From Candidatus Woesearchaeota archaeon (GTDB lineage: Archaea; Nanobdellota; Nanobdellia; Woesearchaeales; DSVV01), in the NCBI GenBank assembly GCA_016205905.1, contig JACQSP010000090.1, positions 1 through 35,585 of the forward strand: a DNA stretch of 35,585 nucleotides, read 5' to 3'. Shown here piece by piece: positions 9,633 to 35,482 of the stretch (position 1 is its first letter; each line of letters opens with the position of its first letter). A model generated the notes under the pieces. That model saw only the letters and a list, made by a program, of their open reading frames with translations. It was not told the origin of the DNA and searched no databases. A program made the position numbers and the translations under genes.

Positions 9633-9669
9633 GAAAGAATATAATTTATTATAATTATGGTGATAAAAC

Positions 9670-11590: not shown

Positions 11591-11688
11591 TAATTATATT
11601 TTTGCAAGAATGAGTTTTAATATTTTACTGTTTATAACATCAATATTTCAATATAATTTATCAATAAATGCTTTAAGAAGTCTTTTGT

Positions 11689-12024
11689 CTATTTGCACAC
11701 ATAATTTACTTTCTGGTCAGTTCCTTCAATGTTCTGATAATGAAATATACCTTTTATTTTCTGCTCTTGAATAATATCCTTTATTTTCACAGTCGAAGAA
11801 TTAATTATTTTGAGGTTTGCCTTATTTATTGTATCTAGTGTAACAATACAGTTTGTAAACGTCCCATTATTTGCAATCGTGAACCAAATCTCATCATTAG
11901 AATATTCTGATTTAAAGAATTCAATGTTTTTCGGAAGATAAACTGCTTTGCCAGTTATTAAGTTACTACAGCCTGTCAAAAATATTAATATCAACACTAT
12001 GATGGAAAATTTAATAATCTTCAT
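11689..12024 (-). CDS. Small lipoprotein-like exported protein
   Basis: 111 aa. MKIIKFSIIVLILIFLTGCSN is lipobox-like (LTGC). TATA-like AACTATATATAG lies about 25 nt upstream. Confidence 0.55.
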   Translation of the reverse strand: MKIIKFSIIVLILIFLTGCSNLITGKAVYLPKNIEFFKSEYSNDEIWFTIANNGTFTNCIVTLDTINKANLKIINSSTVKIKDIIQEQKIKGIFHYQNIEGTDQKVNYVCK

Positions 12025-16184: not shown

Positions 16185-18482
16185 ATGAACAAAACATCCC
16201 AACTCGCAATCTTTATGATTCTTGGAATTGTGTCTGTTATTCTCATAGGTTTGGCATTATTCGGCATTTCTAGCTCGACAGAAAAAGGTTTTGTAACAAA
16301 ACAGTCCCAATTAGGAGAGCTGTTTATCGGCAAAGGTAAATATACTACTTACATTAAAAGCTGTCTTGACCAGGCAACAAAACAAGGTTTAGTATTAGCA
16401 GGTAAACAAGGCGGCGCAATTTATGATAATCAGACCATTGGCGGTAAACAGTCGCAGACAAGCAAATATTATGAATTAGATGGTATAAGAATACATTATT
16501 CATTGCTTTCTCCAACAATAATTAAATTGCCAGAATATCCTTATATTCCAAGTACAATAACATTAACATCTTCCCCTTTTCTAGCTCAAGAACCTTCTAT
16601 TTATGGTGTACCAACACCATTTATTAGTGTCATTAATAATCCGTTCATACCTTTATGCGACAGGTTTGGCCCAAACAATGACCCTAAATCTAATGTGCCT
16701 TACTGCGGCAATGCACCGTACATTTTTGACACTGAAAACATTAACGATCATAACTCTGTCCAAGAATATTTAGGTAAATACATCACGCAAAAAACAAACG
16801 AATGCATAAAACTCGAAACACTGCCAGAGCTTCAAGGATATAACATTATTAAACAAAATTTCAATGTAGACATTATTTTGACAGAATCATCTGTTGTTGC
16901 TAATCTTAACATGACGTTGGCATTATCAACACCGCAGTCAACATTAAAAGAAACCCTGCCGGTGATAGATATCAGCGGTATTTCAGTAGAGAAACATATC
17001 AGGCTAAAACACATATTTGAATTATTGGCAAGAATGAGGCAGGAAGATTCAAAGAATATATTTTTCGAGATAACTAATGCGCAGACATTAAAAACTTGCG
17101 GTCCAAACGAAAATTTGCAGTGCTTAAAGCCAGGAATGATTGTCTCAACCCAGAAATTACCAAATAATGATTATGTTGTCAAGATTACTGACACAGAATC
17201 ATTGATTGACGGAAAGGAGTTTAGTTATCAGGTAATCTTTCAGAATAGAAACCCAACTTTAGATTATTTAACTGCACCAAACTTAAATCCAGAATTTTCT
17301 GATTACAATGCTGTTCTTGTCGAGGGAATGACTCTTGTAATAGATCCTTATGGATATGATCCTGACGAGGATAATCATGAGCAGGGGTTTATGAAAGATT
17401 ATTATTATTACGAGGCAGTTGATGGTTATACTAAATTTGATGCAGACAAGGATAATGACGGAGTGATTGATTGTATTCCGACGACAAACAGCGGTTTAGA
17501 CGGAATAAAAGATTCATTAAAAAGCTGCCTTGTGCAAGACAAGCTGCCGTCAGCATTCAAGGGAAGAAAAGTAACTTATAAACTAACACAACATGATGCC
17601 GGCGAACATATTATCCGAGTAAAAGTCTGCGATAATACAAACAATCCCAAATGTGACTGGCAGGACGTAAAGATTTTTGTTATTCCATTGTTGGCTTTCG
17701 GTACAGATCAGAACGGAAATCCTTTTCCTTTTGATTCAACCAAAGATTACCAAATCTCGGGTTATCCAATTTATTCAACTAATCCAAGTGATACTGTAAC
17801 TTTAGGTGTAAAACAAACAATTACTTCAGAATCATTATTAACACCACAACCACAAGAACCAACTTTGCCTGACACAGAAAACACAGAATCACAACAAGGA
17901 TCAGAAACACAATCAGGAGATGATACTCAAGATTCATCACAATCTTCTCAACCTTCTTCACAACAAGGATATTCTTCGCCAACACAACCTTCAACACATT
18001 CATCCTCGCAACAAACCACACCAATAGTCACGCCAACTATACCTTACGATAACACCGACGTTGATATTCTTATTTCTAGAGCATTAAGCGGCACAAAACT
18101 GCCTTACGAAATGTATTACTTTGAAAACAAATATCTTATAGTGAAAAACACTATTAATAACCAAGGTCCAGAAGTTGTGCCAGAAACAGACGCATTTAGA
18201 CAGTTCGCTGAAAAAGGCGATAATGGAAAACCTAACTTATACATACAAAAAAAGATTTATGGTACCAACCAGCAAAGCGCACTTAACCAAAAGTTAGCTA
18301 CAGGAAAAAACCTGTTTTTTATTTACATCCCTGAGCCATGCACACAAGGAGCGTTCTTCCAAGGATACTGTCATTTTGGTGACAAATGTTATTATAATAT
18401 GAACATAGTTAATCATAATTTTCAAACAGCGTGGGACAATTGTCCTTCTGCAAAACTCTGTACAGAAACAGGGTGTAAATAA
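16185..18482 (+). CDS. Large exported protein 2 (765 aa) with pilin-type N-terminus, Ig-like/Ca-binding-like motifs and an S/T/Q/P linker
   Basis: MNKTSQLAIFMILGIVSVILIGLALFG. DPYGYDPDEDN and DKDNDGVID (DxDxDG-like). Low-complexity TPQPQEPTLPDTENTESQQGSETQSGDDTQDSSQSSQPSSQQGYSSPTQPSTHSSSQQTTP. Cys-rich C-terminus. Confidence 0.75.
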   Translation: MNKTSQLAIFMILGIVSVILIGLALFGISSSTEKGFVTKQSQLGELFIGKGKYTTYIKSCLDQATKQGLVLAGKQGGAIYDNQTIGGKQSQTSKYYELDGIRIHYSLLSPTIIKLPEYPYIPSTITLTSSPFLAQEPSIYGVPTPFISVINNPFIPLCDRFGPNNDPKSNVPYCGNAPYIFDTENINDHNSVQEYLGKYITQKTNECIKLETLPELQGYNIIKQNFNVDIILTESSVVANLNMTLALSTPQSTLKETLPVIDISGISVEKHIRLKHIFELLARMRQEDSKNIFFEITNAQTLKTCGPNENLQCLKPGMIVSTQKLPNNDYVVKITDTESLIDGKEFSYQVIFQNRNPTLDYLTAPNLNPEFSDYNAVLVEGMTLVIDPYGYDPDEDNHEQGFMKDYYYYEAVDGYTKFDADKDNDGVIDCIPTTNSGLDGIKDSLKSCLVQDKLPSAFKGRKVTYKLTQHDAGEHIIRVKVCDNTNNPKCDWQDVKIFVIPLLAFGTDQNGNPFPFDSTKDYQISGYPIYSTNPSDTVTLGVKQTITSESLLTPQPQEPTLPDTENTESQQGSETQSGDDTQDSSQSSQPSSQQGYSSPTQPSTHSSSQQTTPIVTPTIPYDNTDVDILISRALSGTKLPYEMYYFENKYLIVKNTINNQGPEVVPETDAFRQFAEKGDNGKPNLYIQKKIYGTNQQSALNQKLATGKNLFFIYIPEPCTQGAFFQGYCHFGDKCYYNMNIVNHNFQTAWDNCPSAKLCTETGCK

Positions 18483-18897: not shown

Positions 18898-21800
18898 ATG
18901 AAACATAAAAAAGAGCTGATGTTACTGATAGTTTTAACTATTTTTCTCTCTCTTGTTTATTCTTTTTCTTATATTATACCATTAGTTTATGCGCAAGATG
19001 ATTGGTGTTATTTTCCTAATTTAGTAGATAAACCATGCACACAAATATTACCTAACACTGAAATCGCGTCAGAAGCTGACTGCAAAGCACACAGTGGTGA
19101 AATATCTTATGAAAATGAATGCACAACTGGTTGTTGCTGTATTTGGAAACCTGTTGACACAAAGTATGAACAGCAAACAGGAACTACTAAAGGATATTGT
19201 AACAGTCTTCCTAGCTCTGTTTTTAATCCTTCTGTTTCAAGCCCTGCATTATGTACAAATTATTGCAATTCTTTAACTGCTCTTTCAGGCGATGAAGGTA
19301 AATTGCCAGCTTGCATGAATGGCATTGATGATGATAATGATGGTCTTACTGATTATCCTATTGATGAAGGATGCTCTGCTAAAGAAGATGATTCAGAAGA
19401 AGCAACAGCATCAGAAAAAGAATGCAGCGATCAGATAGATAATGATGGCGACGGAAAAATAGATTATTATGGATTTTATGAATCTTCTTATCAAGCACAG
19501 GATAATAAAAATTATGCAATATATCAAAACTTGCTTAAACAAGGCAAAACACCAGATCCATGCTGTACCAAATCCTTCGGCTTGTCTGAGAAATGCAGTT
19601 TTGACGAATGTAAGGTAGGAGAAAACAAAAAAGAAGATGGACTTTGCCAGTGCGGAAAAGAGGTTTGCGGTTTCCCTGAAGTTATTAATCCTTTATCTGA
19701 AATAGGCAATATATATGCAACTGGCAAATATTGTTGCGCAGGTAAATGTAGCATTGTACCATGCGGACCTTGTACTGAAGGAGAAACAACTTACGTGATA
19801 GATAATAGTGGTAAGACTACTTATACATGTGAAAATGGAATATTTAAAAAGGGAATAACTGAACCAATTGGCGCTCCAGAGCAATGTTTTGGCGCTGAGA
19901 TAGACGAAGATAATAATGGTGCTACCAATTGTGAGGATACAAAATGTTATACTTTAAAATGTTCAATGGATAAGGGCGCAACTAAAGATTCAGCAGGCAA
20001 CGTAATTATTCCTGATGGTTGTGGAAAAACCCCTAGTCTAAAAGTTTCCTACTTCGACGAGTCAGACGATTTTTGGAAATGCTGTTTCTCTATGGGTGGT
20101 AAAAGCAGAGTTAATGACTGCAAATATAATGACGGTGTTCCTGATACTTGCGGAGCTTGCGAATGTTTAAATCTCCACAAACCAGCGCAAAACCTTAAAG
20201 TACAGCATGTTTATGGCCAAGCAAAGTTAAACCTAAGCTTTTATTTTGAATGCCAAGAGCCAGAAGTTAAGTTAAAAGTGTTAAGATGCGACGGAACAGC
20301 AGGAAGTTGCGGTGTGAATAACGACGGCACAATTACTTTAGAAACAAGCACAAAGTTTGTTGATGTTTCTGATAATATGGATTGTTTATTAGAACAATTA
20401 GATGCAAATGGAAATCCAACGAAAATCGTTTGTTTCGGCGATAATGGTATCTTACAACCAGGACCAAAACAAAGCTTAGACGTTTCAGCAATATTTGACA
20501 CAAAAATCCTGCCAGAAAAAGATTATACTTATGTACTCGAATCTGTTTATCCTGACAAAGAAATAAGTTTTTCTAATGCTTTCAGCATGAAATCCGGATC
20601 AAAGATGTGCTTAAGCCATTCTGGTCATTTTTGTATAAGAAACAATTTAGATTATTTAGGTTCTGAAACAAAAAAATATTCTTGCGACGAGAATAATAAA
20701 CTTCAAGTTGAAAATTGTCAGGGCAGTTCAGGAGAATGGCCTGAAGAAGTTTGCATGGAAACAAAAGATACTAATGGTGTAATTGCCACAACCTGTGCTC
20801 TTAACACTCCTTGCATTTTTTGCGGTAACCCTTTTAATATGTATGGCAGTTTAAGTTTAAGCAGCAGCACATTATCAGTTCCAGAGGAATATTACGGATA
20901 CAAACCAACAACTAATGAAGAAAATTGCTATCTTAATTCCGTATGTTATTATGATTCAACCAATACAATTAAAGATGCGTATGATTCATGCAAGAATATA
21001 GGAAGTTGCTCTAATTATAAATCCGAAAATGCTTGTGCAAATTCACAAAATCCTACTGTAACCAATGTAAAGAACAAATGCCTGCCTTATAATTGTCAAT
21101 GGGTTGCCTTTGAAACTTTCGAGCCTTATGCAATAGAAGCAGGTATTTGCACAGACGCTACCACAAACTATAAAACCTGCGATATGTGCAACAAATTGAC
21201 GTCTAAATTATTTGGCGGTTGTAATCCTGATACTTGTAAAGATAATTTTAAATCAGAAACAACATTGTGTTATTTTGACCAAGTTAAAACCTCGTGCGTA
21301 GAATCTTCTAAAATAACCTGTTCTAATTATGACACAGAAGAAGATTGTCATGCGAGTTACGGTACTGATGATTATGGTGAAGCACATTCTGTCGAGGTAA
21401 ATGTCACTTATGACACTTCAGGAAAAAGAATCTGGGGTGACAATTCTATTATTGAACCCAGCCATGACCTTCTTGATTTTAAAATATGTAAATGGAAAGA
21501 TGATACAGATGCCTGTATAAGAGACGCTAACGGCGACGGCAAGTATGATGTTGCTGGCGAGAAAGCTATTGATATCACACCACCGCAGACAGAAGTTATT
21601 GCGCCGTCAAATGTTGGTCAGATAGAATTAAAATTTGCCATCAATGATCCTACTTTTGAAGGAAGGCCCAGTTCAGGTGAGTTAAAGACATATTATTGTT
21701 TCCCTGACAATACACCATTGCCTAAAGAAATAATAGACCAATATAAAAATCAAACCAATTTCAAAGATGGCACAACTGAAGAAAACATTAATTATTGTTA

Positions 21801-24800
21801 TCCAGATACTTTATTTGTTCCAGATGCAGGAAGCACATCAAAAATACTTTCCATGGAAAGCGGCCAACAAACAATGTTTTTCTATTCAGAAGATGGGGCG
21901 CATAATCTTGAACCTGTTCAATCATTCACGTTTAACATTGATAACAAACCACCAGTAATAACAATTACTCCTTATCTAACACTTGACCAGTCTTATCCGT
22001 TTGAGCAAAGCAGTGTATTATTATCAGTAGAACTCGACGAGAAAGCAACATGTTACGATATTTTTGAAGATTATGACGGCATTAAAAAAATTAATTATGA
22101 GTCAGGTAACTCTTTCCAGGCAGTTTATGATAATTTGGAAGACGGAACTTATCTGTACACAGTTGTATGCGAAGATAAATTGGGCAACAAGATTAATAAA
22201 ACCGCTTCTGTAAAGATTGATGCTGATCAGGAAATACAAGGTTCTTTGCCTGAAGGAGTAATAGATTATAGTCCTGTAAACTTAGAGATTAAGACGACAC
22301 ATAAAAGTCCAAATGATGATTGCAGAATTGGTACAGGCGATACTTTTGATGTGTTAAGCGGTTTTGCCTCAAAAACACAGGCAGACATATTTACTAAATA
22401 TTCTACACCATTCTCTTTGACAGAGAACAAAGTTTACGAGTTCAAGGTAATGTGCAAATTTTCAGGAAAATTGCATAAAGACGAAATCCAGTTTGTCTAC
22501 GACACAACCCCGCCAAAAACCTCATTGACAGATTCTGCTGGAAACACGTTTGATATTTCTAAATGGTACAATAAACAGGAAGCCTCACAATCAGTTTACT
22601 TAAAATGCAATGACGAGCCAGAATATGGTTTTGGATGCAAAGAGACAAAATATTGCATAGAAACAGGTTCAGCCAAATGTAATATTAATTTTGATGCAAG
22701 TTCCACTCCTGCTGTAGGCACTATATATGAATCATACTCAGCAGTTAAAATCTCGCCCACACCACAGCCGCAATGGCTATGCTATCAATCAAAAGAAGAT
22801 ACATACCCCTCAGATTTAAGTTCATACAGTTCATATGGTGGCAGTATTGAAGAAAAACAGTGTGTTAAACTGTTAATAGATTCTAATTCTGGCCCAACAG
22901 TAGAGGTTCCATTATTAAAACCACACACAGAAATGATTAATGCATACGAATATTTCACACCATTGTTCACAATAAACGGCGAAGTTGTTGACAGCGATGC
23001 AGAAGCAAACCCACCACCTCAAAACAAGCTTACTATAGACGTTTATCCTATCACAGAGGATTATTTAAAATCATTAGCGAAGCAAATTGATTCTCAGCAA
23101 GCAGGGCAAGCCCAAGCACCACCACAGCTAAAAGCAACTCAAACATTTACTCTCAATGCAAACAATCAATTCTCACAAGAATTAACCCTTTCATCTGGCC
23201 TTAACAAGATTGTGCTGAGTGCCACTGACCGTTCAGGAAAAACTTCAGGCATTTATGAATATTATATCATGGTTTCAAATTTTGACGGCAATTTGTTTGA
23301 AGTTATCTCTCCGCCAAAAGGTGTTTCTGAGACAAAAGAGTTTGATTTAATTATAGAAACAACTAAAGACCTTCCAGCAGCAGAAAGCTGCGCCTTATCA
23401 ACAAATCCAAAAGTCGGTTTCACGTCACAGATGCAGAAGATTGAAGGCAAGAAATTCAAGAATCACATTAATTTTCCAGGTATGAAAGAAGAAACATATT
23501 ATACTGTTTATGTCAAGTGTACATTTCCAGGTGGTGTGTTTGACATCAAGGAAATTGATTTAATCTGGGACACAACACCGCCGTCAATAGAAAATAGTTT
23601 TATTCAGCCCAGCGACGGAAAAAGTCCGCCGTCAATTATTGAGCCGCCGCTTGAAACAAACCTTACTATAATAACTAATGACAAATCAAGATGTAAGTTC
23701 TCAGAGAAAGAAAACTCAACTTATTTCACAATGTCGCTTTTCAAAGAGTATGAAACACAAAACTTGAGTTATGTGAACGAGCATCCCTTAACCAATCTTG
23801 AGGACAAGAAAAATTATACCTATTATGTCAAGTGCGACAATGGCCCGACAGAGCCTGCTTCGATGCATATTTCTAATGAGGCAAAAATAACTTTCTCAGT
23901 TGACACGTCGCAGTTCACAGGCTTGGAACTGGTTAAGCCTGCCCAATTTATAGGTTACACATCTGTTAATTTTGAGCTTCATACAACAAAAAAATCAACC
24001 GAATGCACTTTTGGCCCAACACAAGAATTAGTTGGCCAATATTCTATGAAAACAGTTACAGAAGGAGTTGATGCATATAAAGTACATACCGGCGGTCCAT
24101 TAACATTAATCGAAGGAGAGCATGACTTTTATTTCGAGTGCCTTACTGCAGCAGAAGGGCCAATCTCAGAAGATTTTGTATTCACTGTTGATTTATCGCC
24201 GCCAGTTGTTCAGGTAAAAACACAGCCATACACGAGCTCATTAAACACATTGACAGCAAACTGGGAAGCTTATGATAATAATACACAAATTAAAGGATAT
24301 AATTATTCAATAGGCACTAAACAAGGTATTGCAGATATATTTGATTGGGCAGTAACTGACAGTGAAAAGAAAACCATACACAATCTAAATTTAAATAATG
24401 AGACCACATACTGGTGGAATGTTAAAGCAATAAACTCTGTTGGTTTAGTCAGCACAATAGCAAGCAACAGCACTTATGTTGATACAACTTATGATCCTGG
24501 TTTTGAAGTTAATATCACTAACATTAATGTTTGCAAAGATGATGTTCTCGACAGTGATGAGACAGATATAGATTGCGGCGGAAGCTGTCAAAAATGCAGT
24601 AATGGCAAAAACTGCAAATCTGAAACAGATTGTATCGGCGGTAAATGCGAAAGTGGAATATGTATTAGTGCAAGCTGTGAAGACAATATACTTAATCAAT
24701 TAGAAACCGATATAGATTGCGGTGGTTCTTGCGCTTCTTGTCAGGAAGGAATGAATTGTAACATAAACAGCGATTGCAGTACGGGATTTTGTAAATCAGG

Positions 24801-25818
24801 ATTTTGTACATTGCCAAGCTGTGATGATAATGTTCAAAACGGACAGGAGCAGGGCATAGATTGTGGCGGCGCTTGTCCAAATATTTGTGAAATTATACCT
24901 TCATATGATGAAGAGGAAACTTGTGATGATGGAATTAAAAATCAAGATGAAACAGGAATAGATTGTGGTGGATCATGTAAAAAATGTGAAACACCTCCAC
25001 AAAAAACAGAACCAACAGACGAGCCTTCAACATGGTGGATATGGTTAATTGTGCTCCTTATTATCGCAGGTATTGGCGGCGGCGGGTATTATTATTATAA
25101 TAATTATATTTTCAAGGCAAAATATCCTAACTCACAACAAAGAATGCAGTCAAGACCTTTATCACCATTCTCACAACCACAACAGCAATCATCAGTACAA
25201 ACCAGAATGCCACAATCAAAACCATTGGGCATAAGGCAGACATTTAACAGATTCTTTAAACCTTTGCCAAGAGAGTTTAGAGAAAAACGTGCACAGGAAA
25301 AACTTAAACAAAGAAGTAAACTATTTGGCGCATTTGAAAGTGCAGGCGAACAAAAAGAAAAATCAGAAATAAAACAAAACTTAACCAGTGCAAGAACAGA
25401 TATGAAAAAAGAAGAACCCAAAACCCCACAACAACCACCTATACAAAAACAAACACCAATCCAACCTAAAATCCAGCCCAAACTTCAGATTTCAGAAGCA
25501 TTTAAACCTGAAACAGGTGCAGCTAAAGAAGAAATAAAACTTAAACAAACAGAGTTAAAAGAAATAAAAGAGACAAAGCCACAACAAAAACAAGAAACTA
25601 AAAAACAGCCTGCACAAAAAGAACAAGCACCTAAACTAAAGGCAAAAGAAATCCTCAAACCTAAAAAGAAAGCAGTTGAGCAGCTGACTAAACCCTCAAC
25701 CAAAGCCCCTTCAGCTATTGAAAAACTTTCAAAGCTGAAAAAAGAATCAGCTATGTCAAAACTAGGCAAAGGCAAGGATGCATTTAAACAATTATCAAAC
25801 ATTGCAAAGAAGAGGTAA
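18898..25818 (+). CDS. Giant surface protein 3 (2306 aa): Sec signal, Cys-rich ectodomain with repeated modules, TM anchor and low-complexity cytoplasmic tail
   Basis: Signal ...IIPLVYA|QDDW. DxDxDG-like motifs (IDDDNDGLTDY, IDNDGDGKIDYY, RDANGDGKYD). Repeated modules begin at ITPPQTEV, NKPPVITI, TTPPKTSL, TTPPSIEN and LSPPVVQV. FN3-like LTANWEAYD...YWWNVKAINSVGL. Four DCGGxC repeats. TM WWIWLIVLLIIAGIGGGGYYYY (from 25033). K/Q/P/E-rich tail of about 240 aa. Confidence 0.85.
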   Translation: MKHKKELMLLIVLTIFLSLVYSFSYIIPLVYAQDDWCYFPNLVDKPCTQILPNTEIASEADCKAHSGEISYENECTTGCCCIWKPVDTKYEQQTGTTKGYCNSLPSSVFNPSVSSPALCTNYCNSLTALSGDEGKLPACMNGIDDDNDGLTDYPIDEGCSAKEDDSEEATASEKECSDQIDNDGDGKIDYYGFYESSYQAQDNKNYAIYQNLLKQGKTPDPCCTKSFGLSEKCSFDECKVGENKKEDGLCQCGKEVCGFPEVINPLSEIGNIYATGKYCCAGKCSIVPCGPCTEGETTYVIDNSGKTTYTCENGIFKKGITEPIGAPEQCFGAEIDEDNNGATNCEDTKCYTLKCSMDKGATKDSAGNVIIPDGCGKTPSLKVSYFDESDDFWKCCFSMGGKSRVNDCKYNDGVPDTCGACECLNLHKPAQNLKVQHVYGQAKLNLSFYFECQEPEVKLKVLRCDGTAGSCGVNNDGTITLETSTKFVDVSDNMDCLLEQLDANGNPTKIVCFGDNGILQPGPKQSLDVSAIFDTKILPEKDYTYVLESVYPDKEISFSNAFSMKSGSKMCLSHSGHFCIRNNLDYLGSETKKYSCDENNKLQVENCQGSSGEWPEEVCMETKDTNGVIATTCALNTPCIFCGNPFNMYGSLSLSSSTLSVPEEYYGYKPTTNEENCYLNSVCYYDSTNTIKDAYDSCKNIGSCSNYKSENACANSQNPTVTNVKNKCLPYNCQWVAFETFEPYAIEAGICTDATTNYKTCDMCNKLTSKLFGGCNPDTCKDNFKSETTLCYFDQVKTSCVESSKITCSNYDTEEDCHASYGTDDYGEAHSVEVNVTYDTSGKRIWGDNSIIEPSHDLLDFKICKWKDDTDACIRDANGDGKYDVAGEKAIDITPPQTEVIAPSNVGQIELKFAINDPTFEGRPSSGELKTYYCFPDNTPLPKEIIDQYKNQTNFKDGTTEENINYCYPDTLFVPDAGSTSKILSMESGQQTMFFYSEDGAHNLEPVQSFTFNIDNKPPVITITPYLTLDQSYPFEQSSVLLSVELDEKATCYDIFEDYDGIKKINYESGNSFQAVYDNLEDGTYLYTVVCEDKLGNKINKTASVKIDADQEIQGSLPEGVIDYSPVNLEIKTTHKSPNDDCRIGTGDTFDVLSGFASKTQADIFTKYSTPFSLTENKVYEFKVMCKFSGKLHKDEIQFVYDTTPPKTSLTDSAGNTFDISKWYNKQEASQSVYLKCNDEPEYGFGCKETKYCIETGSAKCNINFDASSTPAVGTIYESYSAVKISPTPQPQWLCYQSKEDTYPSDLSSYSSYGGSIEEKQCVKLLIDSNSGPTVEVPLLKPHTEMINAYEYFTPLFTINGEVVDSDAEANPPPQNKLTIDVYPITEDYLKSLAKQIDSQQAGQAQAPPQLKATQTFTLNANNQFSQELTLSSGLNKIVLSATDRSGKTSGIYEYYIMVSNFDGNLFEVISPPKGVSETKEFDLIIETTKDLPAAESCALSTNPKVGFTSQMQKIEGKKFKNHINFPGMKEETYYTVYVKCTFPGGVFDIKEIDLIWDTTPPSIENSFIQPSDGKSPPSIIEPPLETNLTIITNDKSRCKFSEKENSTYFTMSLFKEYETQNLSYVNEHPLTNLEDKKNYTYYVKCDNGPTEPASMHISNEAKITFSVDTSQFTGLELVKPAQFIGYTSVNFELHTTKKSTECTFGPTQELVGQYSMKTVTEGVDAYKVHTGGPLTLIEGEHDFYFECLTAAEGPISEDFVFTVDLSPPVVQVKTQPYTSSLNTLTANWEAYDNNTQIKGYNYSIGTKQGIADIFDWAVTDSEKKTIHNLNLNNETTYWWNVKAINSVGLVSTIASNSTYVDTTYDPGFEVNITNINVCKDDVLDSDETDIDCGGSCQKCSNGKNCKSETDCIGGKCESGICISASCEDNILNQLETDIDCGGSCASCQEGMNCNINSDCSTGFCKSGFCTLPSCDDNVQNGQEQGIDCGGACPNICEIIPSYDEEETCDDGIKNQDETGIDCGGSCKKCETPPQKTEPTDEPSTWWIWLIVLLIIAGIGGGGYYYYNNYIFKAKYPNSQQRMQSRPLSPFSQPQQQSSVQTRMPQSKPLGIRQTFNRFFKPLPREFREKRAQEKLKQRSKLFGAFESAGEQKEKSEIKQNLTSARTDMKKEEPKTPQQPPIQKQTPIQPKIQPKLQISEAFKPETGAAKEEIKLKQTELKEIKETKPQQKQETKKQPAQKEQAPKLKAKEILKPKKKAVEQLTKPSTKAPSAIEKLSKLKKESAMSKLGKGKDAFKQLSNIAKKR

Positions 25819-25955: not shown

Positions 25956-26486
25956 ATGAAACTATTTACTAATTTATTAACATCAAAAACAAGCCACATT
26001 AACTCAAAGAAGTCGCAGGTTGAACAAATGTTTTTTTACATTTTGGCCTTGTTTGTTATAGGCACAATGCTGTTATTAGGCATTAAATATATCGGCAAGA
26101 TTGTCAAGCAGGTTGAATCAGTTGACCTTGTTGAGTTCAAAACAAGTTTACAAAATGATGTGGATGTTTTAGTCACAAAATATGGCAGCTGGAAAAAAGC
26201 AACATATACTGTGCCTAAAGAAGTCAAGAAGGTATGTTTTTTTACAATAGATGCTTATAAAAATGGTTGTCCTTCGCTTCCAGACCTTGACGCTGTAATG
26301 TGCGATGCATGGCAGTCTGGCACACAAAACGTAATGACTGTTCCGTTTGTTTTGGAATCACCAATTAATCTCACTAAAATGGTTGTTGATGAAACTAATG
26401 GCTACAAATGTTTCGAGGTTACAGACAGGAAAATCACTTTAAAAATTACAGGTATAGGTAATGGCGTGAAGATTTCAGAGGCGTGA
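25956..26486 (+). CDS. Class III signal (prepilin-like) protein, 176 aa
   Basis: ...INSKKS|QVEQMFFYILALFVIGTMLLLGI shows a basic stretch, a small residue, polar/acidic +1..+3, then about 20 hydrophobic residues. SD AGGTGA lies 6 nt upstream. Confidence 0.6.
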   Translation: MKLFTNLLTSKTSHINSKKSQVEQMFFYILALFVIGTMLLLGIKYIGKIVKQVESVDLVEFKTSLQNDVDVLVTKYGSWKKATYTVPKEVKKVCFFTIDAYKNGCPSLPDLDAVMCDAWQSGTQNVMTVPFVLESPINLTKMVVDETNGYKCFEVTDRKITLKITGIGNGVKISEA

Positions 26487-26488
26487 TT

Positions 26489-26609
26489 AAAAAGGTAAGA
26501 AAGTAAAGATTAAACAGTTAAAAGTAAGAGTAGGGGGTAAGGGGGAACAACTACGATGTTATCATCGTACCTCTTACCTTATACCTCTTACTTTTTACTT
26601 CTTACCTTT
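26489..26609. repeat. Family-2 palindromic element
   Basis: Core GGGAACAACTACGATGTTATCATCGTACCTCTTACC (26543-26578). Starts 3 nt after the stop of 25956..26486. The left arm carries a short insertion (GATTAAACAGTTAA). Confidence 0.75.
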
Positions 26610-26651
26610 AATTCCATCCAATTATTCAACTAACTTACAGTTTCAAATACC

Positions 26652-27749
26652 ATGAACAAAAAAGGTGTGATTGAAATACAGTTCAACTGGATATTTATCT
26701 TTGTTGTAGGTACAGTTATCCTGCTATTCTTTGTTTTTATTGGCAAGTCTTATTTAGAGAACTCTAATCTTAAATTAGCTGGCAAGGTTTTGTATGATCT
26801 AGATTCAATTATGAAAGGTGCAACCTCGTCAACAAAGTCAGCTTCAAAATTAGAAATACCTAATCTTAAACTCAGGTTTACATGTTTTCCAGACTGCACT
26901 GAAGAAGGATGCAGCTCAGATTTTTCTATGGGTGATACTGGCGTTAACAAGCCGACACCCTACCAAGTTATATTCGCTCAAGAGGAGATTAACAGCGACT
27001 TTTTGATAACATGGACACTTGACTGGGGCGTTCCTTTCAAAGTTGCAAATTTTCTTTACTTGACATCACCAAATATAAGATATATTCTCGTCTACAAAAA
27101 TTCAATGGCAGAATCAAAAACTTTTGCAGAAAAAATATTTGCATTAATGTCAGACAATGAATTTCTGAACTCAGAATTGATAGAAGAAGAGCAATTACCT
27201 TCAATCGAAGACCAAGGCCATGACAAGATTAGGTTTGTCTTTTTTTATCAATTTGATGATATCTCTGATAAGACTAATGGAAAAAGTCTATCAGATACAA
27301 CATTTGATGTTCTGGTTCTAACTCCTAGCTTTGAAGGGACAGCCATCTTCTTGTCAGATAAACAAGTTATGAAAGAATTTAGCTATGACGAGCAGAAGAA
27401 GATTGGATATTTTGGTAAAGAAGCATTGGTTGGAGCAATATTTTCAGAAGATGAGAATTTCTTTGAGTGCAATATGCGAAAATCATTCAATCATCTAAAC
27501 CGAATTTATGATGTTTACAGATATAGAGCACTTTATCTTGCAAAATATATCGCTGACAATGATCAATTCTCACACTGCTCCCAAGTTTACAATGAATTTG
27601 CATCACTTCCAGACGAGACAATAGAATATCCTCAAGAACTTACAGAAGATGCTTATAAGACACCATTTTATTCAATCACAAAGATATTTCAGATAGCTGA
27701 AGATACAAATAATAAGGCAATAATTAACTCGTGCCCGAGACTGTATTGA
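26652..27749 (+). CDS. Class III signal (prepilin-like) protein, 365 aa
   Basis: MNKKG|VIEIQFNWIFIFVVGTVILLFFVF closely resembles the archaeal KKGQ-ISLEF class III signal consensus. Confidence 0.6.
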   Translation: MNKKGVIEIQFNWIFIFVVGTVILLFFVFIGKSYLENSNLKLAGKVLYDLDSIMKGATSSTKSASKLEIPNLKLRFTCFPDCTEEGCSSDFSMGDTGVNKPTPYQVIFAQEEINSDFLITWTLDWGVPFKVANFLYLTSPNIRYILVYKNSMAESKTFAEKIFALMSDNEFLNSELIEEEQLPSIEDQGHDKIRFVFFYQFDDISDKTNGKSLSDTTFDVLVLTPSFEGTAIFLSDKQVMKEFSYDEQKKIGYFGKEALVGAIFSEDENFFECNMRKSFNHLNRIYDVYRYRALYLAKYIADNDQFSHCSQVYNEFASLPDETIEYPQELTEDAYKTPFYSITKIFQIAEDTNNKAIINSCPRLY

Positions 27750-27751
27750 TT

Positions 27752-27956
27752 ATATTTGTTTAGCATTAATGTTTTTTTACTTTACACAATTTTACTACAT
27801 ACATTATATTATTGCTCACAGCACGTTTGTGGGACGCAGTCCCCGTCTCATGAAAAATCTTAAATTTTTTTTAAATGGCTGTATAAAAAACCCCCTATTA
27901 CCAACTAATAAAGCAAATAAAAACTTAAAAGCATCAAATAATAACTAAACAAATAC
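27752..27956. mobile_element. Family-1 MITE (205 bp) with 8-bp TSD (7/8)
   Basis: Ends ATATTTGTTTAG (27752-27763) and CTAAACAAATAC (27945-27956). Flanks TATTGATT (27744-27751, containing the upstream gene's TGA stop) and TATTAATT (27957-27964). Left block ATTGCTCACAGCACGTTTGTGGGACGCAGTCCCCGTCTCATGAA is present; the right GGCTTCGCC block is missing. Confidence 0.75.
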
Positions 27957-28044
27957 TATTAATTGAATTATGTCAACCATATAATTTAAATGAATAGTTA
28001 TGCACACAATTTAAGATAATACTTGCATTATTTAAACTAAAAAA

Positions 28045-28584
28045 ATGAAACCTACCACATATATCAAACACACCAAACAAAAACATGCGCAATTAAAAAT
28101 CGGCGAGTCTATCTTAGTTCTAATTATCTTTTTTATTCTGCTGACAATGGGTTTGGTATTTTATGCAAAGGTCCAGACACATTTAACCAAAGAAGATAAT
28201 GATGAATTTAATGCAAAACGTTCCATAGACATGGCTTTGGCTGTCAAATTTCTTCCTGAATTGCAGTGCACTGTGCAGGCAACAGAAGAGTTTGATTGTA
28301 TAGATATTGCTAAACTTTATATTTTTGGTGAAGTCTTAAAAAACAAGCCAGTTTATCAGAGATATTATGCGCAACTGTTTCCTAATGCAAAAATCATTAT
28401 AAAACAGGCATTTGCATCAGAGGGACCAATGATGCCGAAAGATGGCATTTTGTTGTTTGATAACAAATATGTAGAAGAGAAGCAAGCAGGCTCATTAAAT
28501 ATATTATTTTTTCCAGTCACACTTTACGATCCTTTAACAGATTCAAATAGTTTTGGATTTATTGAATTAGAGGTATATGGATAA
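28045..28584 (+). CDS. Class III signal (prepilin-like) protein, 179 aa
   Basis: ...KHAQLKIG|ESILVLIIFFILLTMGLVFYA. Confidence 0.5.
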   Translation: MKPTTYIKHTKQKHAQLKIGESILVLIIFFILLTMGLVFYAKVQTHLTKEDNDEFNAKRSIDMALAVKFLPELQCTVQATEEFDCIDIAKLYIFGEVLKNKPVYQRYYAQLFPNAKIIIKQAFASEGPMMPKDGILLFDNKYVEEKQAGSLNILFFPVTLYDPLTDSNSFGFIELEVYG

Positions 28585-28596
28585 CCTTTTTTATAC

Positions 28597-28610
28597 TTTT
28601 AGTATATAAT
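28597..28610 (+). promoter_or_regulatory. Candidate TATA/promoter motif TTTTAGTATATAAT
   Basis: Shares TTTAGTATATAAT with 25911-25923. Centre lies about 35 nt upstream of the ATG at 28641. Confidence 0.4.
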
Positions 28611-28640
28611 CAATCAAATAATTAATAAAAATATGTAAAA

Positions 28641-29216
28641 ATGAAACATAAAAGAATCAATAAAGCGCAGACAGAAATCATGGGATTAATGATTATAGTA
28701 GTTATAGTAACATTAATAGTGTTATTCGTTGTTTCTGTTGTTTATTTCAAGCCAAAAGAAGATCCATTGCAAAGTTTCATTCAGAAAGATTTGTCGACGA
28801 GCATAATCAGTGCAATGCTGAAGACAGGATCTGGATGCACTAAAGACACGACAATGGAAGATTTGTTTATTGATATGGTTAAAGCAGGAGGAGGAAGCAC
28901 AATTATTTGCAAAAATAGTGAGAAACTGTCCATTATATACAAAGACAATCCAGATTGTCAGAATATAGTTAATGGAAGAAATGCTCTTGATTGCGGTGTT
29001 TCACAAATACTTAAACCATTAGAAGAAAGAGGTCAGCCATTTCATTTTGTTGTCAAAGTGCAGAACAATGCGCCGTATATCAACAAATCATACCTATCAG
29101 AAGAGTTTGCAAGAGCAAAGAGTATGGAAGTAACACCTTATACACTTCCAATCTATCCAACTGACCAAGTATTAGAAATATGGTTATGTATGGGTGGCGA
29201 ATGTCCGGAGATATAA
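28641..29216 (+). CDS. Class III signal (prepilin-like) protein, 191 aa
   Basis: MKHKRINKA|QTEIMGLMIIVVIVTLIVLFVV, with a Cys-containing globular part. Confidence 0.6.
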   Translation: MKHKRINKAQTEIMGLMIIVVIVTLIVLFVVSVVYFKPKEDPLQSFIQKDLSTSIISAMLKTGSGCTKDTTMEDLFIDMVKAGGGSTIICKNSEKLSIIYKDNPDCQNIVNGRNALDCGVSQILKPLEERGQPFHFVVKVQNNAPYINKSYLSEEFARAKSMEVTPYTLPIYPTDQVLEIWLCMGGECPEI

Positions 29217-29323
29217 GCTAAATCATAAGATTATTGTTAAATATACATAATCTTTATATATTAGACTTAACAAATAATTATAAAAGATATAATAATAAAA
29301 ACAAACCAAACGAGGTGGAGCAA

Positions 29324-29599
29324 ATGTTTAAAAAAGGTGATTTGTCGCTTAATATGATTATTGTTGCAATTATTGCATTGCTTGTTTTAGTTATTATCGC
29401 TGCAATATTTACAGGAAGATTAGCTTTGTTTAATATAGGAATTTCTGATTGCCTGAAAGTAAAAGGCGCGCAATGCATGTTTGAATGCGGTGATGGATAT
29501 GTACAGGACAAGACAAGCAAATGTTTGACTGAAGAGAAAAAGGTTGACCCTAACCAAGTCTGCTGCATACCGCAGGACTTTACTGAAATTCAGGAGTAA
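29324..29599 (+). CDS. Short class III signal (prepilin-like) protein, 91 aa, six Cys; candidate major subunit
   Basis: MFKKG|DLSLNMIIVAIIALLVLVIIAAIF. Strong SD GAGGTGGAG (29312-29320) lies 3-4 nt upstream of the ATG at 29324, so the track's 29234 start is rejected. C-terminal part is CLKVKGAQCMFECGDG...KC...VCC. Confidence 0.65.
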   Translation: MFKKGDLSLNMIIVAIIALLVLVIIAAIFTGRLALFNIGISDCLKVKGAQCMFECGDGYVQDKTSKCLTEEKKVDPNQVCCIPQDFTEIQE

Positions 29600-29775: not shown

Positions 29776-30693
29776 ATGAAACGAAAAGTTATCCAAATCG
29801 CAGACAAAACCTTTGTAATTTCACTGCCATCTGAATGGGTCAAGCGTTTTAACATCAGTAAAGGCGACGAAATAGATTTAAAAGAGTTCAATGATGGCTT
29901 AATTATTTCTTCTCAAAATCAGCTTGGAGCAACAAGCTCTATAAGAATTAATATCGCGAATCTTAATGAACGTGTTATCAGATGGTATCTTTCTGCACTG
30001 CATAAGGCAGGTTATGATGAAATTGAAATAAATTATATTGACAAAGACCAGCTTAAATTAATCTACGAATTAATGAAAAACCTTTTCACAGGATTTAACA
30101 TAATCTCTGAAACAAAAAATGTTGTTGTGCTAAAATCTATTTCTAAAGAGAACAAAGAGGAATTTGATGCTGCATTAAGGCGCTCATTCCGTATTACAAT
30201 CTCAATGGGCAGTGAGCTTATTGAATGTTTAAAAACTAAAAATTATGAAAGATTGCCATTAATCAAAGAAAAAGAGCTCCTTAACAATCAATTGACTAAC
30301 TTTTGCGAAAGGCTGGTTAACAAGCACAGGTTTGAAAAATCAGTGTTTCTGTATACAATAATCTGGAACCTCGAAAAAATCTGCGATAATTACAAATATA
30401 TAATTAATGAACTAGGTAAACAAGATACAAACATTAACCTCAAAACACCAATTTCAAAGGAGCTTATTAACATTTTTGAGCTTGCCAATAATTACCTTGA
30501 GCAGTATTATGATTTGTTATTTAATTTTGACATCAAAAAATTAAATACTATTGACGAGAATAAAAAACAAATCAATTCAAAAACATCAGCTTTAAAATTA
30601 AGCGGTCTTGATAAAGAAATTCTTAATCATTTAATTGTTTTGATAACACAAACAACTGATTTCTCTGCTTCAATTATTGCGATGAATGTTTAA
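29776..30693 (+). CDS. AbrB/SpoVT-domain + PhoU-like domain regulator
   Basis: N-terminus MKRKVIQIADKTFVISLPSEWVKRFNISKGDEIDL is an AbrB/SpoVT swapped-hairpin pattern. The helical remainder fits the archaeal AbrB-PhoU architecture. Confidence 0.6.
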   Translation: MKRKVIQIADKTFVISLPSEWVKRFNISKGDEIDLKEFNDGLIISSQNQLGATSSIRINIANLNERVIRWYLSALHKAGYDEIEINYIDKDQLKLIYELMKNLFTGFNIISETKNVVVLKSISKENKEEFDAALRRSFRITISMGSELIECLKTKNYERLPLIKEKELLNNQLTNFCERLVNKHRFEKSVFLYTIIWNLEKICDNYKYIINELGKQDTNINLKTPISKELINIFELANNYLEQYYDLLFNFDIKKLNTIDENKKQINSKTSALKLSGLDKEILNHLIVLITQTTDFSASIIAMNV

Positions 30694-33314: not shown

Positions 33315-33440
33315 ATGCTAACTAAACTTAAACTAAGCAAAAAAGCAGATTGGGAATCATTAGTAAAAACCATAATTATACTTTTAGTATTTATAGCACT
33401 GGTATTGTCTGTAATTGGGCTATTAAGAATTTTGAAATAA
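33315..33440 (+). CDS. Small ORF absent from the ORF track (41 aa): class III signal-like mini-pilin or small membrane peptide
   Basis: ATG 33315, TAA 33438-33440. MLTKLKLSKKA|DWESLVKTIIILLVFIALVLSVIGLLRILK. Below the 60-aa cutoff of the ORF track. Same strand as, and 89 nt upstream of, two pilin-like paralogs. Confidence 0.4.
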   Translation: MLTKLKLSKKADWESLVKTIIILLVFIALVLSVIGLLRILK

Positions 33441-33528
33441 GGAAGGTCATAATCAGCCCCACTAAATCAACCAATCAAACATAGAATATACTAAAAGTCA
33501 TTAATTTTCATACAAAAACAAGTTAATT

Positions 33529-34419
33529 ATGTTCAAACACAAAAAAATAGGAATAGCCTTGCCAAGGCTTACGCAAATTATATTAGTTTTGCTGTTTTTT
33601 GTAGTTGCATTAGTCATTGCTCCAAGCTTTCTTAACTGGTCTGGCCTTAAATCAAAGGAAGAGGTTTGCAAATTTACCATCGGCGCTGAACAGTTTACAA
33701 AGGTTGGCTCTTTCAGTGTTATAAGAGAAAAATGTCCGCAAAGCATGGTCAGGATTTACAATGACAAAATTACTAAAGACAATAAACCTTTGCTTTTCAA
33801 GTTTAAAGAGGGCGAAAAAACTAAAGTTCAGACAACATTCAAGGATAATTTGCCAGAAGAGTTTGTTTATAAAACAATAGCTGACGAGATGGTTGCCTGT
33901 TGGGATAAGTTTGGCCATGGCAAAGATATATTTGAAGCTAATTTATTGTCTACAAACAAAAATTGTGCAAGATGCGCTTTGGTAACATTTGATACAAGTG
34001 TCATAAGTTCTGGTTCTTTAGGGTCTTTAAATGGCTTGGCTGAGTTTATGTCTTCAAACAAAATTTCAACAGGCAACATTAAGGGAACAGAAGAAACATA
34101 TTATGATCATCTTTATATGAATGCAATATCTAATAAACACAATGTTAATCTGCTTGTGATGGGCGAGGACTTGTCAGATTCTGATGAAAAAGATCTGCCG
34201 TATTACAATCCTCAATCCTTGGTTATTGATCAATCAACTTCAATAATACCTTCTGCAGTTAACACTTATCAGATTATTTACTTTGTCTGGAGCACACAGA
34301 ATATTGTTCAGGTATTAGATCAATTAGGATTAAGCGCAAAATTTGACGTGCCTTCACATATATTTTTAGTTCAAAGCGACCAAATCACCACTTATCTTTG
34401 CGAGAATTTTATGAATTAA
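33529..34419 (+). CDS. Class III signal (prepilin-like) protein, 296 aa; paralog of 34517..35482
   Basis: MFKHKKIG|IALPRLTQIILVLLFFVVALVIA. Shared core ...C...CP...IADEMVACWDKF...C.RCALVTFD...LNGLAEFM... Confidence 0.55.
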   Translation: MFKHKKIGIALPRLTQIILVLLFFVVALVIAPSFLNWSGLKSKEEVCKFTIGAEQFTKVGSFSVIREKCPQSMVRIYNDKITKDNKPLLFKFKEGEKTKVQTTFKDNLPEEFVYKTIADEMVACWDKFGHGKDIFEANLLSTNKNCARCALVTFDTSVISSGSLGSLNGLAEFMSSNKISTGNIKGTEETYYDHLYMNAISNKHNVNLLVMGEDLSDSDEKDLPYYNPQSLVIDQSTSIIPSAVNTYQIIYFVWSTQNIVQVLDQLGLSAKFDVPSHIFLVQSDQITTYLCENFMN

Positions 34420-34516
34420 TAAGAAACAATTAAAAAATTCAATAACTTATTTAATAAATAAAAAAAGATAAAGATAAAATAGAAAAGGATAAAATAAATC
34501 AACCATTTTTTTAGCC

Positions 34517-35482
34517 ATGAACATTAAAACAAAAACCTTAAAAATATGCACTAAAAAATCACAAATGATGGCGTTTACCCTCGTCGGTGTACTTATTATG
34601 CTGTTTTTATTGTTTATTTTATTGTTTGAATCAAATCTTTTTATTAAATACAAAGAAACAACAGCTCTTAATAATTGCAGGCAATCAACAATGCTGGCAT
34701 CTTTCAAACAGCCGGCTGTTTTGGCAACATTAACAGGAGCGCAGACGCCAATTGAGAAATCCGGCAAGGACATAAATTGCCCAATTATCTATAAAAATAT
34801 TAAAGAATACAATGGCAAAGATAACCCCAAAGAAAGTGATAATTATTACATAAACAAAATTATAGCCGACCAAATGGCAGGGTGTTGGTATAAATTTAAT
34901 GAAGGCAATGTAAATCTGTTCTCTAAAGTTCATGGTGAAACAACCGAATACTGTGTTGTTTGCAGCGTCGTCTCATTCGAAGAAGATGCGAAAAACCAAG
35001 AAGTGAATGGCTTGTTAAATTTTATGGCAACAAAAAAGACACCCGCATTATTTGGAGCAAAGACATACATAGAATATTTATCCGGCGTGGCAACAGACCA
35101 GGAAATGCAAAAAAAGATTAAAGAGCAGGATACTTCTTCAATAAACACAGCAAGTGATTATGTTATCTTATTCTATTATCCAAAAAAAGGGTATTATTCT
35201 GAGTCAGAAGCAGTTGTTTTAGGCTCAAAAGTAGGTGGTGGTGTTGGTGCAGCCCTTACTTTAGTGCTCAAATATCTGCCGCAGGCAAAAGCAGTCAGTT
35301 GGATTGGCGGCAAATGGTTTATTATGGGCTCGTCTGCAATGGGCGGTTGGATTGGCAGTTTCTTTGGCCACGGCAAAGGTTATGAGTATGGCGCTCAGGT
35401 TTTATTATTGCCTTACCATCAGGAAATGCTTAAAGAAATGAAATGCGAGATGCCAGTGCCGCTGGGTTATAGGCCGGAATGA
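34517..35482 (+). CDS. Class III signal (prepilin-like) protein, 321 aa; paralog with extra Gly-rich hydrophobic C-terminus
   Basis: ...CTKKS|QMMAFTLVGVLIMLFLLFILLF. Shared core IADQMAGCWYKF...YCVVCSVVSFEED...VNGLLNFM. C-terminal GSKVGGGVGAALTLVL...GGKWFIMGSSAMGGWIGSFFGHGKG. Confidence 0.55.
   Translation: MNIKTKTLKICTKKSQMMAFTLVGVLIMLFLLFILLFESNLFIKYKETTALNNCRQSTMLASFKQPAVLATLTGAQTPIEKSGKDINCPIIYKNIKEYNGKDNPKESDNYYINKIIADQMAGCWYKFNEGNVNLFSKVHGETTEYCVVCSVVSFEEDAKNQEVNGLLNFMATKKTPALFGAKTYIEYLSGVATDQEMQKKIKEQDTSSINTASDYVILFYYPKKGYYSESEAVVLGSKVGGGVGAALTLVLKYLPQAKAVSWIGGKWFIMGSSAMGGWIGSFFGHGKGYEYGAQVLLLPYHQEMLKEMKCEMPVPLGYRPE

Follow-up and report, generated by a model that had tools for sequence, protein, structure and literature searches.

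A Woesearchaeota-specific gene island encoding pilin-like proteins, candidate subunits of a type IV filament

The window analysed in this work, which is the whole stretch of DNA under study, is a complete contig of 35,585 nucleotides (35.6 kb) from a Candidatus Woesearchaeota metagenome-assembled genome (MAG), and it contains five consecutive genes encoding proteins of 176, 365, 179, 191 and 91 amino acids (aa). An earlier, sequence-only reading had taken these genes as a self-contained set; instead, they are the conserved core of a larger, Woesearchaeota-specific island together with a 765-aa gene, the gene for a giant Cys-rich protein of 2306 aa, a micro-open reading frame (micro-ORF) and a 296-/321-aa gene pair. 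Judged by sequence, the N-termini of the five proteins are of the class III (prepilin) pattern and are nearest to those of EppA-type pilins of Methanococcus. On balance, we think it probable that the five proteins undergo class III processing and are the pilin-like subunits of a type IV filament peculiar to the lineage; its machinery would be encoded elsewhere, and it would work with the giant protein as an adhesin. For such a filament we infer cleavage, polymerisation, the major and minor roles of the subunits and the adhesion function.

Conservation, gene order and dosage of the cassette

All five ORFs, which had been noted for lying on the same strand, are present, and the same order recurs across loci. 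A scan of GTDB with one genome per species returned 263 matching stretches, 80 of which were fetched with 10-kb flanks. The island has the order (765-aa homologue), giant gene, 176, 365, 179, 191, 91 (0-5 copies) and 296/321 (1-2 copies), followed by more 91-like genes. The question of synteny in related genomes was thus answered by a fixed-order cassette: the quartet of larger genes was complete and in order at 54 of the 70 loci with enough sequence, the 365-179-191 trio was present at 71 loci, and a homologue of the giant protein was encoded directly upstream of the cassette at 42 of the 62 loci with enough upstream sequence. The cassette genes of other genomes frequently abut or overlap, in keeping with an operon. 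Between the core and the 296- and 321-aa genes, the window has an AbrB/MazE-PhoU gene and a TPR gene on the minus strand; the same layout is found in the closest relative (locus L004, 90% identity), where the island ends past the 321-aa gene. Judged by this conservation, chance and ORF artefacts are excluded.

The four larger genes are single-copy and the 91-aa gene occurs in 0-5 copies per locus, with a mode of 3. This dosage, with the fixed order of the quartet, backs the earlier suggestion that one short subunit goes with four larger ones. The 91-aa protein itself is the ATG-started form of a 121-aa ORF that begins with TTG at 29234, and the ATG start is backed by the orthologues.

The families are large and restricted to records of the Woesearchaeota/Nanoarchaeota type. 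For example, the 365-aa protein, which is identical in sequence to the hypothetical protein with locus tag HY636_04370, has 105 database homologues, all annotated as hypothetical and none with a Pfam domain, and their named sources are Woesearchaeota, Nanoarchaeota and unclassified archaea only. The 191-aa family comprises 511 clusters at 50% identity in a representative library, and the 91-aa family at least 1606 proteins of ~80-100 aa. No relative of the cassette families was found on viral contigs in IMG/VR, and a viral origin of the island was rejected on this ground. Many cassette-bearing GTDB records (L011, L012, L014, L021, L023, L065 and others) are labelled "uncultured Methanosarcinales archaeon", and one is labelled "Candidatus Binatia bacterium"; these labels are probably wrong, or the contigs misbinned.

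The N-terminal motif as a predicted processing site

Each of the five proteins has a single N-terminal hydrophobic segment right behind a stretch rich in K/R whose last residue is G, A or S, and the segments in the hydropathy profiles begin 1-6 residues past the predicted site in all five. A pilin-like N-terminus combined with a hydrophobic segment was found in ten of the 24 window ORFs examined, all ten of which lie within 16185-18482, 25956-29599 or 33315-35482, and no housekeeping protein has this N-terminus.

Across hundreds of orthologues, the N-termini, which had been described as class III-type from the window alone, behave as a conserved processing motif. In the 176-, 179- and 191-aa families, the residue at -1 was only A, S or G (58 of 58, 76 of 76 and 69 of 69 orthologues, respectively), positions -2 and -3 were mostly K or R (at -2 in 55 of 57, 72 of 76 and 67 of 69), and the residue at +1 was Q in 55 of 58, 76 of 76 and 69 of 69. 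The leader ahead of the site varied in length from ~4 to 30 residues in the orthologue alignments. The combination of a strictly small residue, an invariant Gln and a freely varying leader looks like a processing site; a plain membrane anchor would need none of these. In the 91-aa family (KKAQG), Q at +1 is again the consensus residue, and the 365-aa family often has it too; up to the site, these two families share the consensus KK[GA]. Within the window, Q at +1 is found in three of the five cassette proteins and in the 765- and 321-aa proteins as well.

Further positions are characteristic of each family. Among the 59 aligned orthologues of the 176-aa protein, +4 was Q in 50 of 58 and G42 was present in 59 of 59, while the 191-aa family had E at +3 and G at +6 in 72 of 72 each. 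The N-terminal consensus of the 365-aa family is KK[GA]x.E.QFNWIF, with E at +3 and invariant W13 and G20. The 91-aa family has N at +5/+6 and the consensus KKAQGLSxNxIIIAAIALxVLVVLxxIFTGR, plus a C..C..C..C..CC pattern. For the 179-aa protein, cleavage had been placed at KIG↓ES (arrows mark the predicted cleavage site), which proved wrong: the conservation of Q16 (+1, 76 of 76) and E21 (+6, 78 of 78) among 80 orthologues indicates that the protein is most likely cut at KHA↓Q rather than at KIG↓E.

Past the site, the hydrophobic run is ~22 residues long (22-30), and the N-terminus is the best-conserved stretch of every family, with a mean top-residue frequency of 0.59-0.71 versus 0.40-0.46 elsewhere. 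The most conserved N-terminus of all is that of the 91-aa family (0.71 versus 0.40 for the rest), beyond whose conserved helix only ~55 residues remain. Taken together, the highly conserved helix, the short remainder and the amplification of the 91-aa protein fit a role as major subunit, and the other four would be minor pilins. When the families were compared with hhalign, they were alike only over their first 30-80 residues (probability up to 86%), with the exception of the 296/321 pair; the N-terminus is thus the sole part common to the families, as in pilin superfamilies. Duplication of one ancestral pilin, considered as the origin of the five proteins, would be neither required nor contradicted by a likeness limited to those first 30-80 residues. 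An approximate FlaFind-type regular expression, which is not the program itself, matched the 91-aa protein only, at the right place, as E at +3 breaks the match in the others.

Globular domains and predicted structures

The globular parts had not been recognised by the sequence-only reading, and they found no Pfam, NCBIfam or PDB match here either; the families are new. No meaningful match came from Pfam and NCBIfam searches with the five cassette proteins, the four additional proteins and the giants, and PDB sequence profiles searched with the 365-, 191- and 91-aa alignments returned insignificant transmembrane-helix matches only. Among the PDB profile matches, those to a "type IV pilin PilA" chain (E 3.4) and to a "flagellin-like protein" (E 1.4) were not significant and were rejected. 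The Cys-rich character of several of the domains is conserved across the 191-, 365- and 91-aa families, with invariant C66, C90 and C183 in the 191-aa family and C273, C309 and C361 in the 365-aa family. The 91-aa protein ends in a mini-domain with six Cys, which makes up its C-terminal half (29450-29599). β-Defensin Pfam models were weakly matched by two of 66 members of the 91-aa family (best E 7.8e-5).

AlphaFold models were computed for the 365- and 191-aa proteins, and an alignment for this purpose was built from representative-library matches. The model of the 365-aa protein (predicted local distance difference test, pLDDT, 91.1; predicted template modelling score, pTM, 0.86) consists of a helix at 3-59, a β-sheet at 64-148, an α/β part and a helical bundle. 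In that of the 191-aa protein (pLDDT 90.9), the modelled helix starts exactly at the predicted site and comprises helices 9-35 and 42-61 with a Pro-rich kink between them, followed by three short helices and then four β-strands at 134-184; as modelled, this protein would be pilin-like in outline only (helix, loop, four-stranded sheet). The expectation of a pilin-like structure therefore stood for the long N-terminal helix followed by a β-sheet, but not for the globular domains, which in Foldseek comparisons of the two models are unlike any solved pilin. On these models, the globular folds appear to be new, or to have diverged past recognition. Pilin globular domains are notoriously variable.

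Assembly machinery

Machinery genes were sought in the window and within 10 kb around the cassette at ~88 loci, made up of 83 scanned loci and the long-contig loci. In the window, a Pfam search of the 19 larger ORFs revealed no ATPase, platform protein or peptidase, and neither three short ORFs (10544-12024) nor an NCBIfam scan of the 2306-aa protein added any. Scans for Walker-A (PilB-type) and GxGD motifs and hydropathy screens over all ORFs of the 83 loci yielded no candidates. The ten best multi-transmembrane candidates were identified by Pfam as SpoIIM, weak M50, Vut_1, cation efflux and presenilin/signal-peptide-peptidase (SPP)-type protease proteins, all unrelated to the machinery sought; no A24 peptidase or PilC was among them. 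At one locus (L010, 5338-6279), the gene for a presenilin/signal-peptide-peptidase-type (GxGD) intramembrane protease lies directly behind the 191-aa gene; this placement is a single case and may be a coincidence. The gene tables of seven long-contig loci listed no T2SSE, T2SSF or A24 families, and the 91-aa paralogues on long contigs fell in the same island every time, with no ATPase alongside.

The earlier statement that no machinery is encoded in cis thus holds for the window and the related loci. At the level of the lineage, flaI, flaJ and flaK have been reported in most Woesearchaeota MAGs (PMC11606122, PMC5994134, PMC8407392), so that a peptidase of class III type, an ATPase and a platform protein exist in the lineage, and the lack of any peptidase or ATPase in the genome, which would have spoken against pilins, is not what these reports describe. 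The literature on pilus machinery in DPANN archaea is divided, and Nanoarchaeota have several such systems.

The wider island

The features of the island are collected in Table 1. Four further proteins (beginning at 16185, 33315, 33529 and 34517), to which the same N-terminus had been attributed, proved to be real, and relatives were found for each. Homologues of the 765-aa protein are encoded upstream of the giant gene at 18 loci, and full-length copies open with [KR][GAS]Q[ILV]T.F.I.G followed by a hydrophobic segment; the protein had no Pfam or NCBIfam match. In the giant protein, residues 2043-2066 are predicted to span the membrane, and the cytoplasmic tail, ~240 residues in length, has many Lys, Gln and Pro; the protein also gave weak matches to Big_13 and to an acidic double-disulfide repeat. 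The signal peptide and a K-rich C-terminus are common to most of the giant-protein orthologues sampled.

Table 1. Positions of island features in the window and, where a locus is named, at related loci
Feature	Position	Strand	Remarks
765-aa protein	16185..18482	+	MNKTS↓QLAIFMILG...; first island gene, upstream of giant gene
2306-aa giant Cys-rich surface protein	18898..25818	+	110 Cys; Sec-type signal peptide; candidate adhesin
176-aa pilin-like protein	25956..26486	+	Predicted site SKKS↓QVEQMFFYIL, after residue 20; mature part from ~26016
365-aa pilin-like protein	26652..27749	+	Predicted site NKKG↓VIEIQFNWIF; largest of the four single-copy "minor" subunits
179-aa pilin-like protein	28045..28584	+	Corrected predicted site KHA↓QLKIGESILVL, after residue 15
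191-aa pilin-like protein	28641..29216	+	Predicted site INKA↓QTEIMGL
91-aa short pilin-like protein	29324..29599	+	Predicted site MFKKG↓DLSLNMIIVAIIAL; candidate major subunit
AbrB/MazE-type DNA-binding domain gene	29776..30693	+	Pfam MazE_antitoxin E 1.3e-8; PhoU match below curated cutoff
41-aa micro-ORF	33315..33440	+	MLTKLKLSKKA↓DWESLVKTIIILLVFIALVLSVIGLLRILK; hardly more than a pilin-like N-terminus
296-aa pilin-like protein	33529..34419	+	KKIG↓IALPRL...; paralogue of 321-aa gene
321-aa pilin-like protein	34517..35482	+	TKKS↓QMMAFTLVG...; last gene ahead of contig end
Further micro-ORFs	L002 12167-12334 and 14430-14588; L084 10608-10715		Leader plus helix, often with Gly-rich tail
Hydrolase-family members	L087 16390-19515; L089 13708-14910; L088 18027-19832; L011 12822-14159; L074 14078-15361; L008 19234-20475; L025 14514-16502; L037 18852-19811; L069 18225-19301; L079 9779-10927		

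A near-identical copy of the 41-aa micro-ORF lies at the same position in the closest relative (L004, 16290-16415). Helix-only micro-ORFs of 30-62 aa were found inside the island at 41 of 83 loci, where they are ~9x denser than in the flanks, and they may be Flp-like minimal subunits. The 296- and 321-aa proteins are full-length paralogues (hhalign probability 100%), and elsewhere this family is encoded directly behind the 91-aa genes, with 69 members in the fetched loci and usually 1-2 per island; in the 321-aa family, -1 was G, A or S in 34 of 37 members, with K/R at -2/-3.

In other genomes, fuller islands consist of ~20 consecutive genes, nearly all of whose products open with [KR][KR][GAS] and a hydrophobic helix. 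At the distal end of such islands lies a family with a common N-terminal region and swappable peptidoglycan hydrolase domains (SLT, M23, M23+SLT, M15/VanY). Proteins of 400-1041 aa are among its members, those that were read begin pilin-like, and all but one of the domain matches are above the Pfam cutoffs. The family was found neither in the window nor within 2.7 kb in the closest relative L004. To our knowledge, archaea have no murein, and the hydrolases of the island therefore point to bacterial cell walls as their target.

Neighbouring genes and source of the contig

A homologue of the AbrB/MazE-type gene adjoins the cassette at 10 loci (the window and nine others), on either strand, which makes it a candidate local regulator. 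Upstream of the island, a 1248-aa protein (12197-15943) has 42 Cys and an N-terminal hydrophobic anchor; it had no Pfam or NCBIfam match and no homologue in the fetched flanks. The archaeal source of the contig is shown by genes for an intein-bearing MCM, TBP, RNase P p30 and ThiI. The G+C content is ~31-37% across the window without a compositional break, and neither tRNA genes nor Rfam matches were found in it. The MCM helicase gene (1273-4743, minus strand) is split by an intein with a LAGLIDADG homing endonuclease domain. A BRO-N domain protein (7256-7768) and an AbiEi/AbiEii-like toxin-antitoxin pair (8780-10380) are encoded among the housekeeping genes and hint at mobile-element or defence content.

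Comparison with known pilin systems

The closest likeness is to the Epd pilins of Methanococcus maripaludis, which have a leader of 5-13 aa ending in Gly, with Gln at +1 and Glu at +5, and which comprise a 74-aa major pilin and minor pilins of 130-156 or, for the larger ones, 200-299 aa; these genes are spread over at least four loci, with the ATPase and two platform genes located separately (PMC3875500). Makarova et al. described no fewer than five minor-pilin-like proteins per locus in clade 1 (PMC4858521), and a "system 1" has been reported in methanogens and some DPANN archaea, with standalone pilin loci mentioned (10.64898/2026.04.22.720090). As in Epd and "system 1", the island proteins have a short basic leader that ends in a small residue, Gln at +1 and an acidic residue soon after. 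As in Epd, a very short major subunit (74 aa there, a candidate of ~80-100 aa here) is accompanied by several larger minor pilins, and the pilin genes are set apart from the ATPase/platform locus. However, the island proteins had no DUF361/Class_IIIsignal (PF04021) match at E ≤ 1 in the window and at E ≤ 0.1 among 66 members of the 91-aa family, the residue at -1 is A, S or G rather than G only, and the globular domains are Cys-rich with an unmatched fold. In addition, the island loci contain no EppA gene, whereas EppA is encoded within the epd operon, and the island goes together with a giant Cys-rich membrane protein and, elsewhere, with peptidoglycan hydrolases.

Bacterial systems have quartets of minor pilins, such as GspH-I-J-K with GspG, FimU-PilV-W-X with PilA and the adhesin PilY1, and ComGD-GG with ComGC. 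The cassette resembles these in that four single-copy pilin-like genes stand in a fixed order beside the gene for a short major subunit, in that one of the four is much larger (365 aa here; GspK or PilW/X there), and in that the gene for a very large adhesin candidate lies in the same operon-like block, as does pilY1. Nevertheless, no similarity to the bacterial quartets was found with Pfam, NCBIfam, PDB profiles or Foldseek, the island proteins lack the G↓(F/M)xxxE motif, and the giant island protein is held by its own C-terminal transmembrane segment. The resemblance is thus an analogy in gene count and layout, not homology.

Two other systems share single features with the island. The bindosome of Sulfolobus, in which sugar-binding surface proteins have class III signals, is an established precedent for such signals on other proteins (10.64898/2026.04.22.720090). 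As there, non-pilin domains follow a pilin-like N-terminus and would depend on machinery of the type IV filament kind encoded elsewhere, which fits the hydrolase-bearing members of the island; unlike there, the island has no substrate-binding domains or ABC transporters, and its core proteins have no recognisable functional domain. With the Flp pilins of Tad systems the island shares very short subunits, but the Flp motif (an E-Y pair) is missing, a weak Flp1_like Pfam match was obtained for one of 66 members of the 91-aa family, and no TadV/CpaA-type peptidase was seen at the island.

Proposed assembly and alternative explanations

In the assembly that we propose, each protein would enter the membrane via its N-terminal hydrophobic helix, and a signal peptidase of class III (FlaK/PibD/EppA type), encoded elsewhere, would trim the basic leader past the conserved G, A or S. 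A secretion ATPase and a platform protein, also encoded elsewhere, would then polymerise the mature helices. The multi-copy 91-aa protein would be the major subunit, and the four single-copy proteins (176, 365, 179 and 191 aa) could be minor pilins that prime or cap the filament, by analogy with the minor-pilin quartets found in the type IV pili, type II secretion and Com systems of bacteria. Finally, the giant Cys-rich membrane protein could provide adhesion, probably to a partner cell. A more specific form of this proposal, which we regard as rather doubtful, is that of a type IV filament for attack on a host, in which tiny disulfide-knotted subunits, four novel minor pilins and the giant adhesin would be joined, in many genomes, by pilin-headed hydrolases (SLT, M23, M15/VanY), so as to attach to bacterial hosts and breach their walls locally.

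Several observations weigh against a filament of this kind. No ATPase, platform protein or A24 peptidase was found within 10 kb of the cassette at the ~88 loci, and He et al. reported that DPANN genomes lack type IV pilus components (10.1101/2020.05.14.094862). No match at E ≤ 1 was obtained with the pilin Pfam models PF04021, PF07790 and PF01917, and the acidic residue of the island proteins is at +3 or +6 rather than at +5 as in Epd. When the models were compared with the PDB by Foldseek, no pilin was among the top 50 matches (best E 0.021 for the 365-aa and 0.23 for the 191-aa protein, template modelling (TM) score ≤ 0.24), although full-length models were used and the protruding helix may lower the sensitivity; in this strict sense, the folds are unrelated to those of pilins. 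The giant protein has its own C-terminal anchor and would need no pilus for its display. Furthermore, the ~20 genes of the fuller islands, which include enzymes with the same N-terminus, are beyond the need of any known pilus, and a shared N-terminus on this scale fits a general surface-anchoring signal equally well.

This abundance of pilin-headed proteins, enzymes among them, fits a scheme that we consider unlikely, in which the proteins are class III-processed but form no long pilus: a short pseudopilus or bindosome-like scaffold would display enzymes, binding proteins and the giant adhesin, and the class III signal would be the general surface-display route of the lineage. Such a scheme would account for the run of ~20 consecutive genes with a common N-terminus, with its SLT, M23 and M15/VanY proteins of 400-1041 aa, and for globular domains that are unrelated to each other and to known pilins, and it has its precedent in the class III-signal sugar-binding proteins of Sulfolobus (10.64898/2026.04.22.720090). 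However, both the helix-only micro-ORFs and the amplified 91-aa protein look structural, being almost devoid of a functional domain, and the four larger genes, single-copy and strictly ordered, suggest stoichiometric assembly and not assorted cargo. It is also quite unlikely, in our estimation, that the N-termini are uncleaved signal anchors of bitopic proteins, whose helices would pack, perhaps with the anchor of the giant protein, into a membrane complex without any pilus machinery. Polar residues conserved within a transmembrane helix (Q, E, N) can serve helix-helix packing, by which those of the island proteins would be explained, and the lack of machinery in cis and of any pilin family or fold match would be expected, as would the denial of type IV pilus components to DPANN archaea in one paper (10.1101/2020.05.14.094862). 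On the other hand, an anchor needs neither a strictly small residue (A, S or G in 203 of 203 sequences from three families) nor an invariant Gln next to it, the leader varies freely in length while -1 and +1 stay fixed, the pattern coincides with that of proven EppA substrates (PMC3875500), and flaK-type peptidases have been reported in Woesearchaeota (PMC11606122, PMC5994134, PMC8407392).

Every signal peptide has a basic n-region and then a hydrophobic stretch. The five N-termini could in principle be ordinary Sec signal peptides, cut by signal peptidase I to release soluble, Cys-rich secreted products, all the more as the neighbouring giant protein has a typical Sec signal. This is very improbable, since the hydrophobic stretch is 22-30 residues long and the most conserved part of each protein, no small-x-small cleavage motif stands behind it, and it is modelled confidently as the first half of a helix of 50-57 residues that is continuous with the folded domain.

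Significance for Woesearchaeota

Woesearchaeota are among the most widespread uncultured DPANN archaea, and they are tiny and probably symbiotic. The present analysis points to an island in them that is deeply conserved, has ~10 to 20 genes and is missed entirely by current annotation; its products are annotated as hypothetical and are without Pfam domains, and it encodes at least ten unannotated proteins with pilin-like heads in a group often said to lack pili. Type IV pilin-like proteins are already known as a kind; in the literature searched we found neither these families and folds nor the fixed cassette next to a giant Cys-rich protein or its link to pilin-headed murein hydrolases. The 91-aa subunit and the giant adhesin candidate are concrete targets for antibodies, cryo-electron tomography and metaproteomics in enrichment cultures.

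If the proteins are true pilins, they would represent several new pilin families with new folds, the cassette would be the archaeal equivalent of the bacterial layout with four minor pilins, a major pilin and an adhesin, and the linked peptidoglycan hydrolases would point to bacterial hosts. In a groundwater study, which appears to have produced many related groundwater MAGs, pili-bearing episymbionts were assigned to the Candidate Phyla Radiation (CPR) because DPANN archaea lack type IV pilus components (10.1101/2020.05.14.094862). If the more doubtful proposal of a filament for host attack were true, the island would equip an archaeon with a pilus-borne lytic toolkit against bacteria, and some of the "pili-bearing ultra-small cells" on groundwater hosts need not be CPR bacteria.

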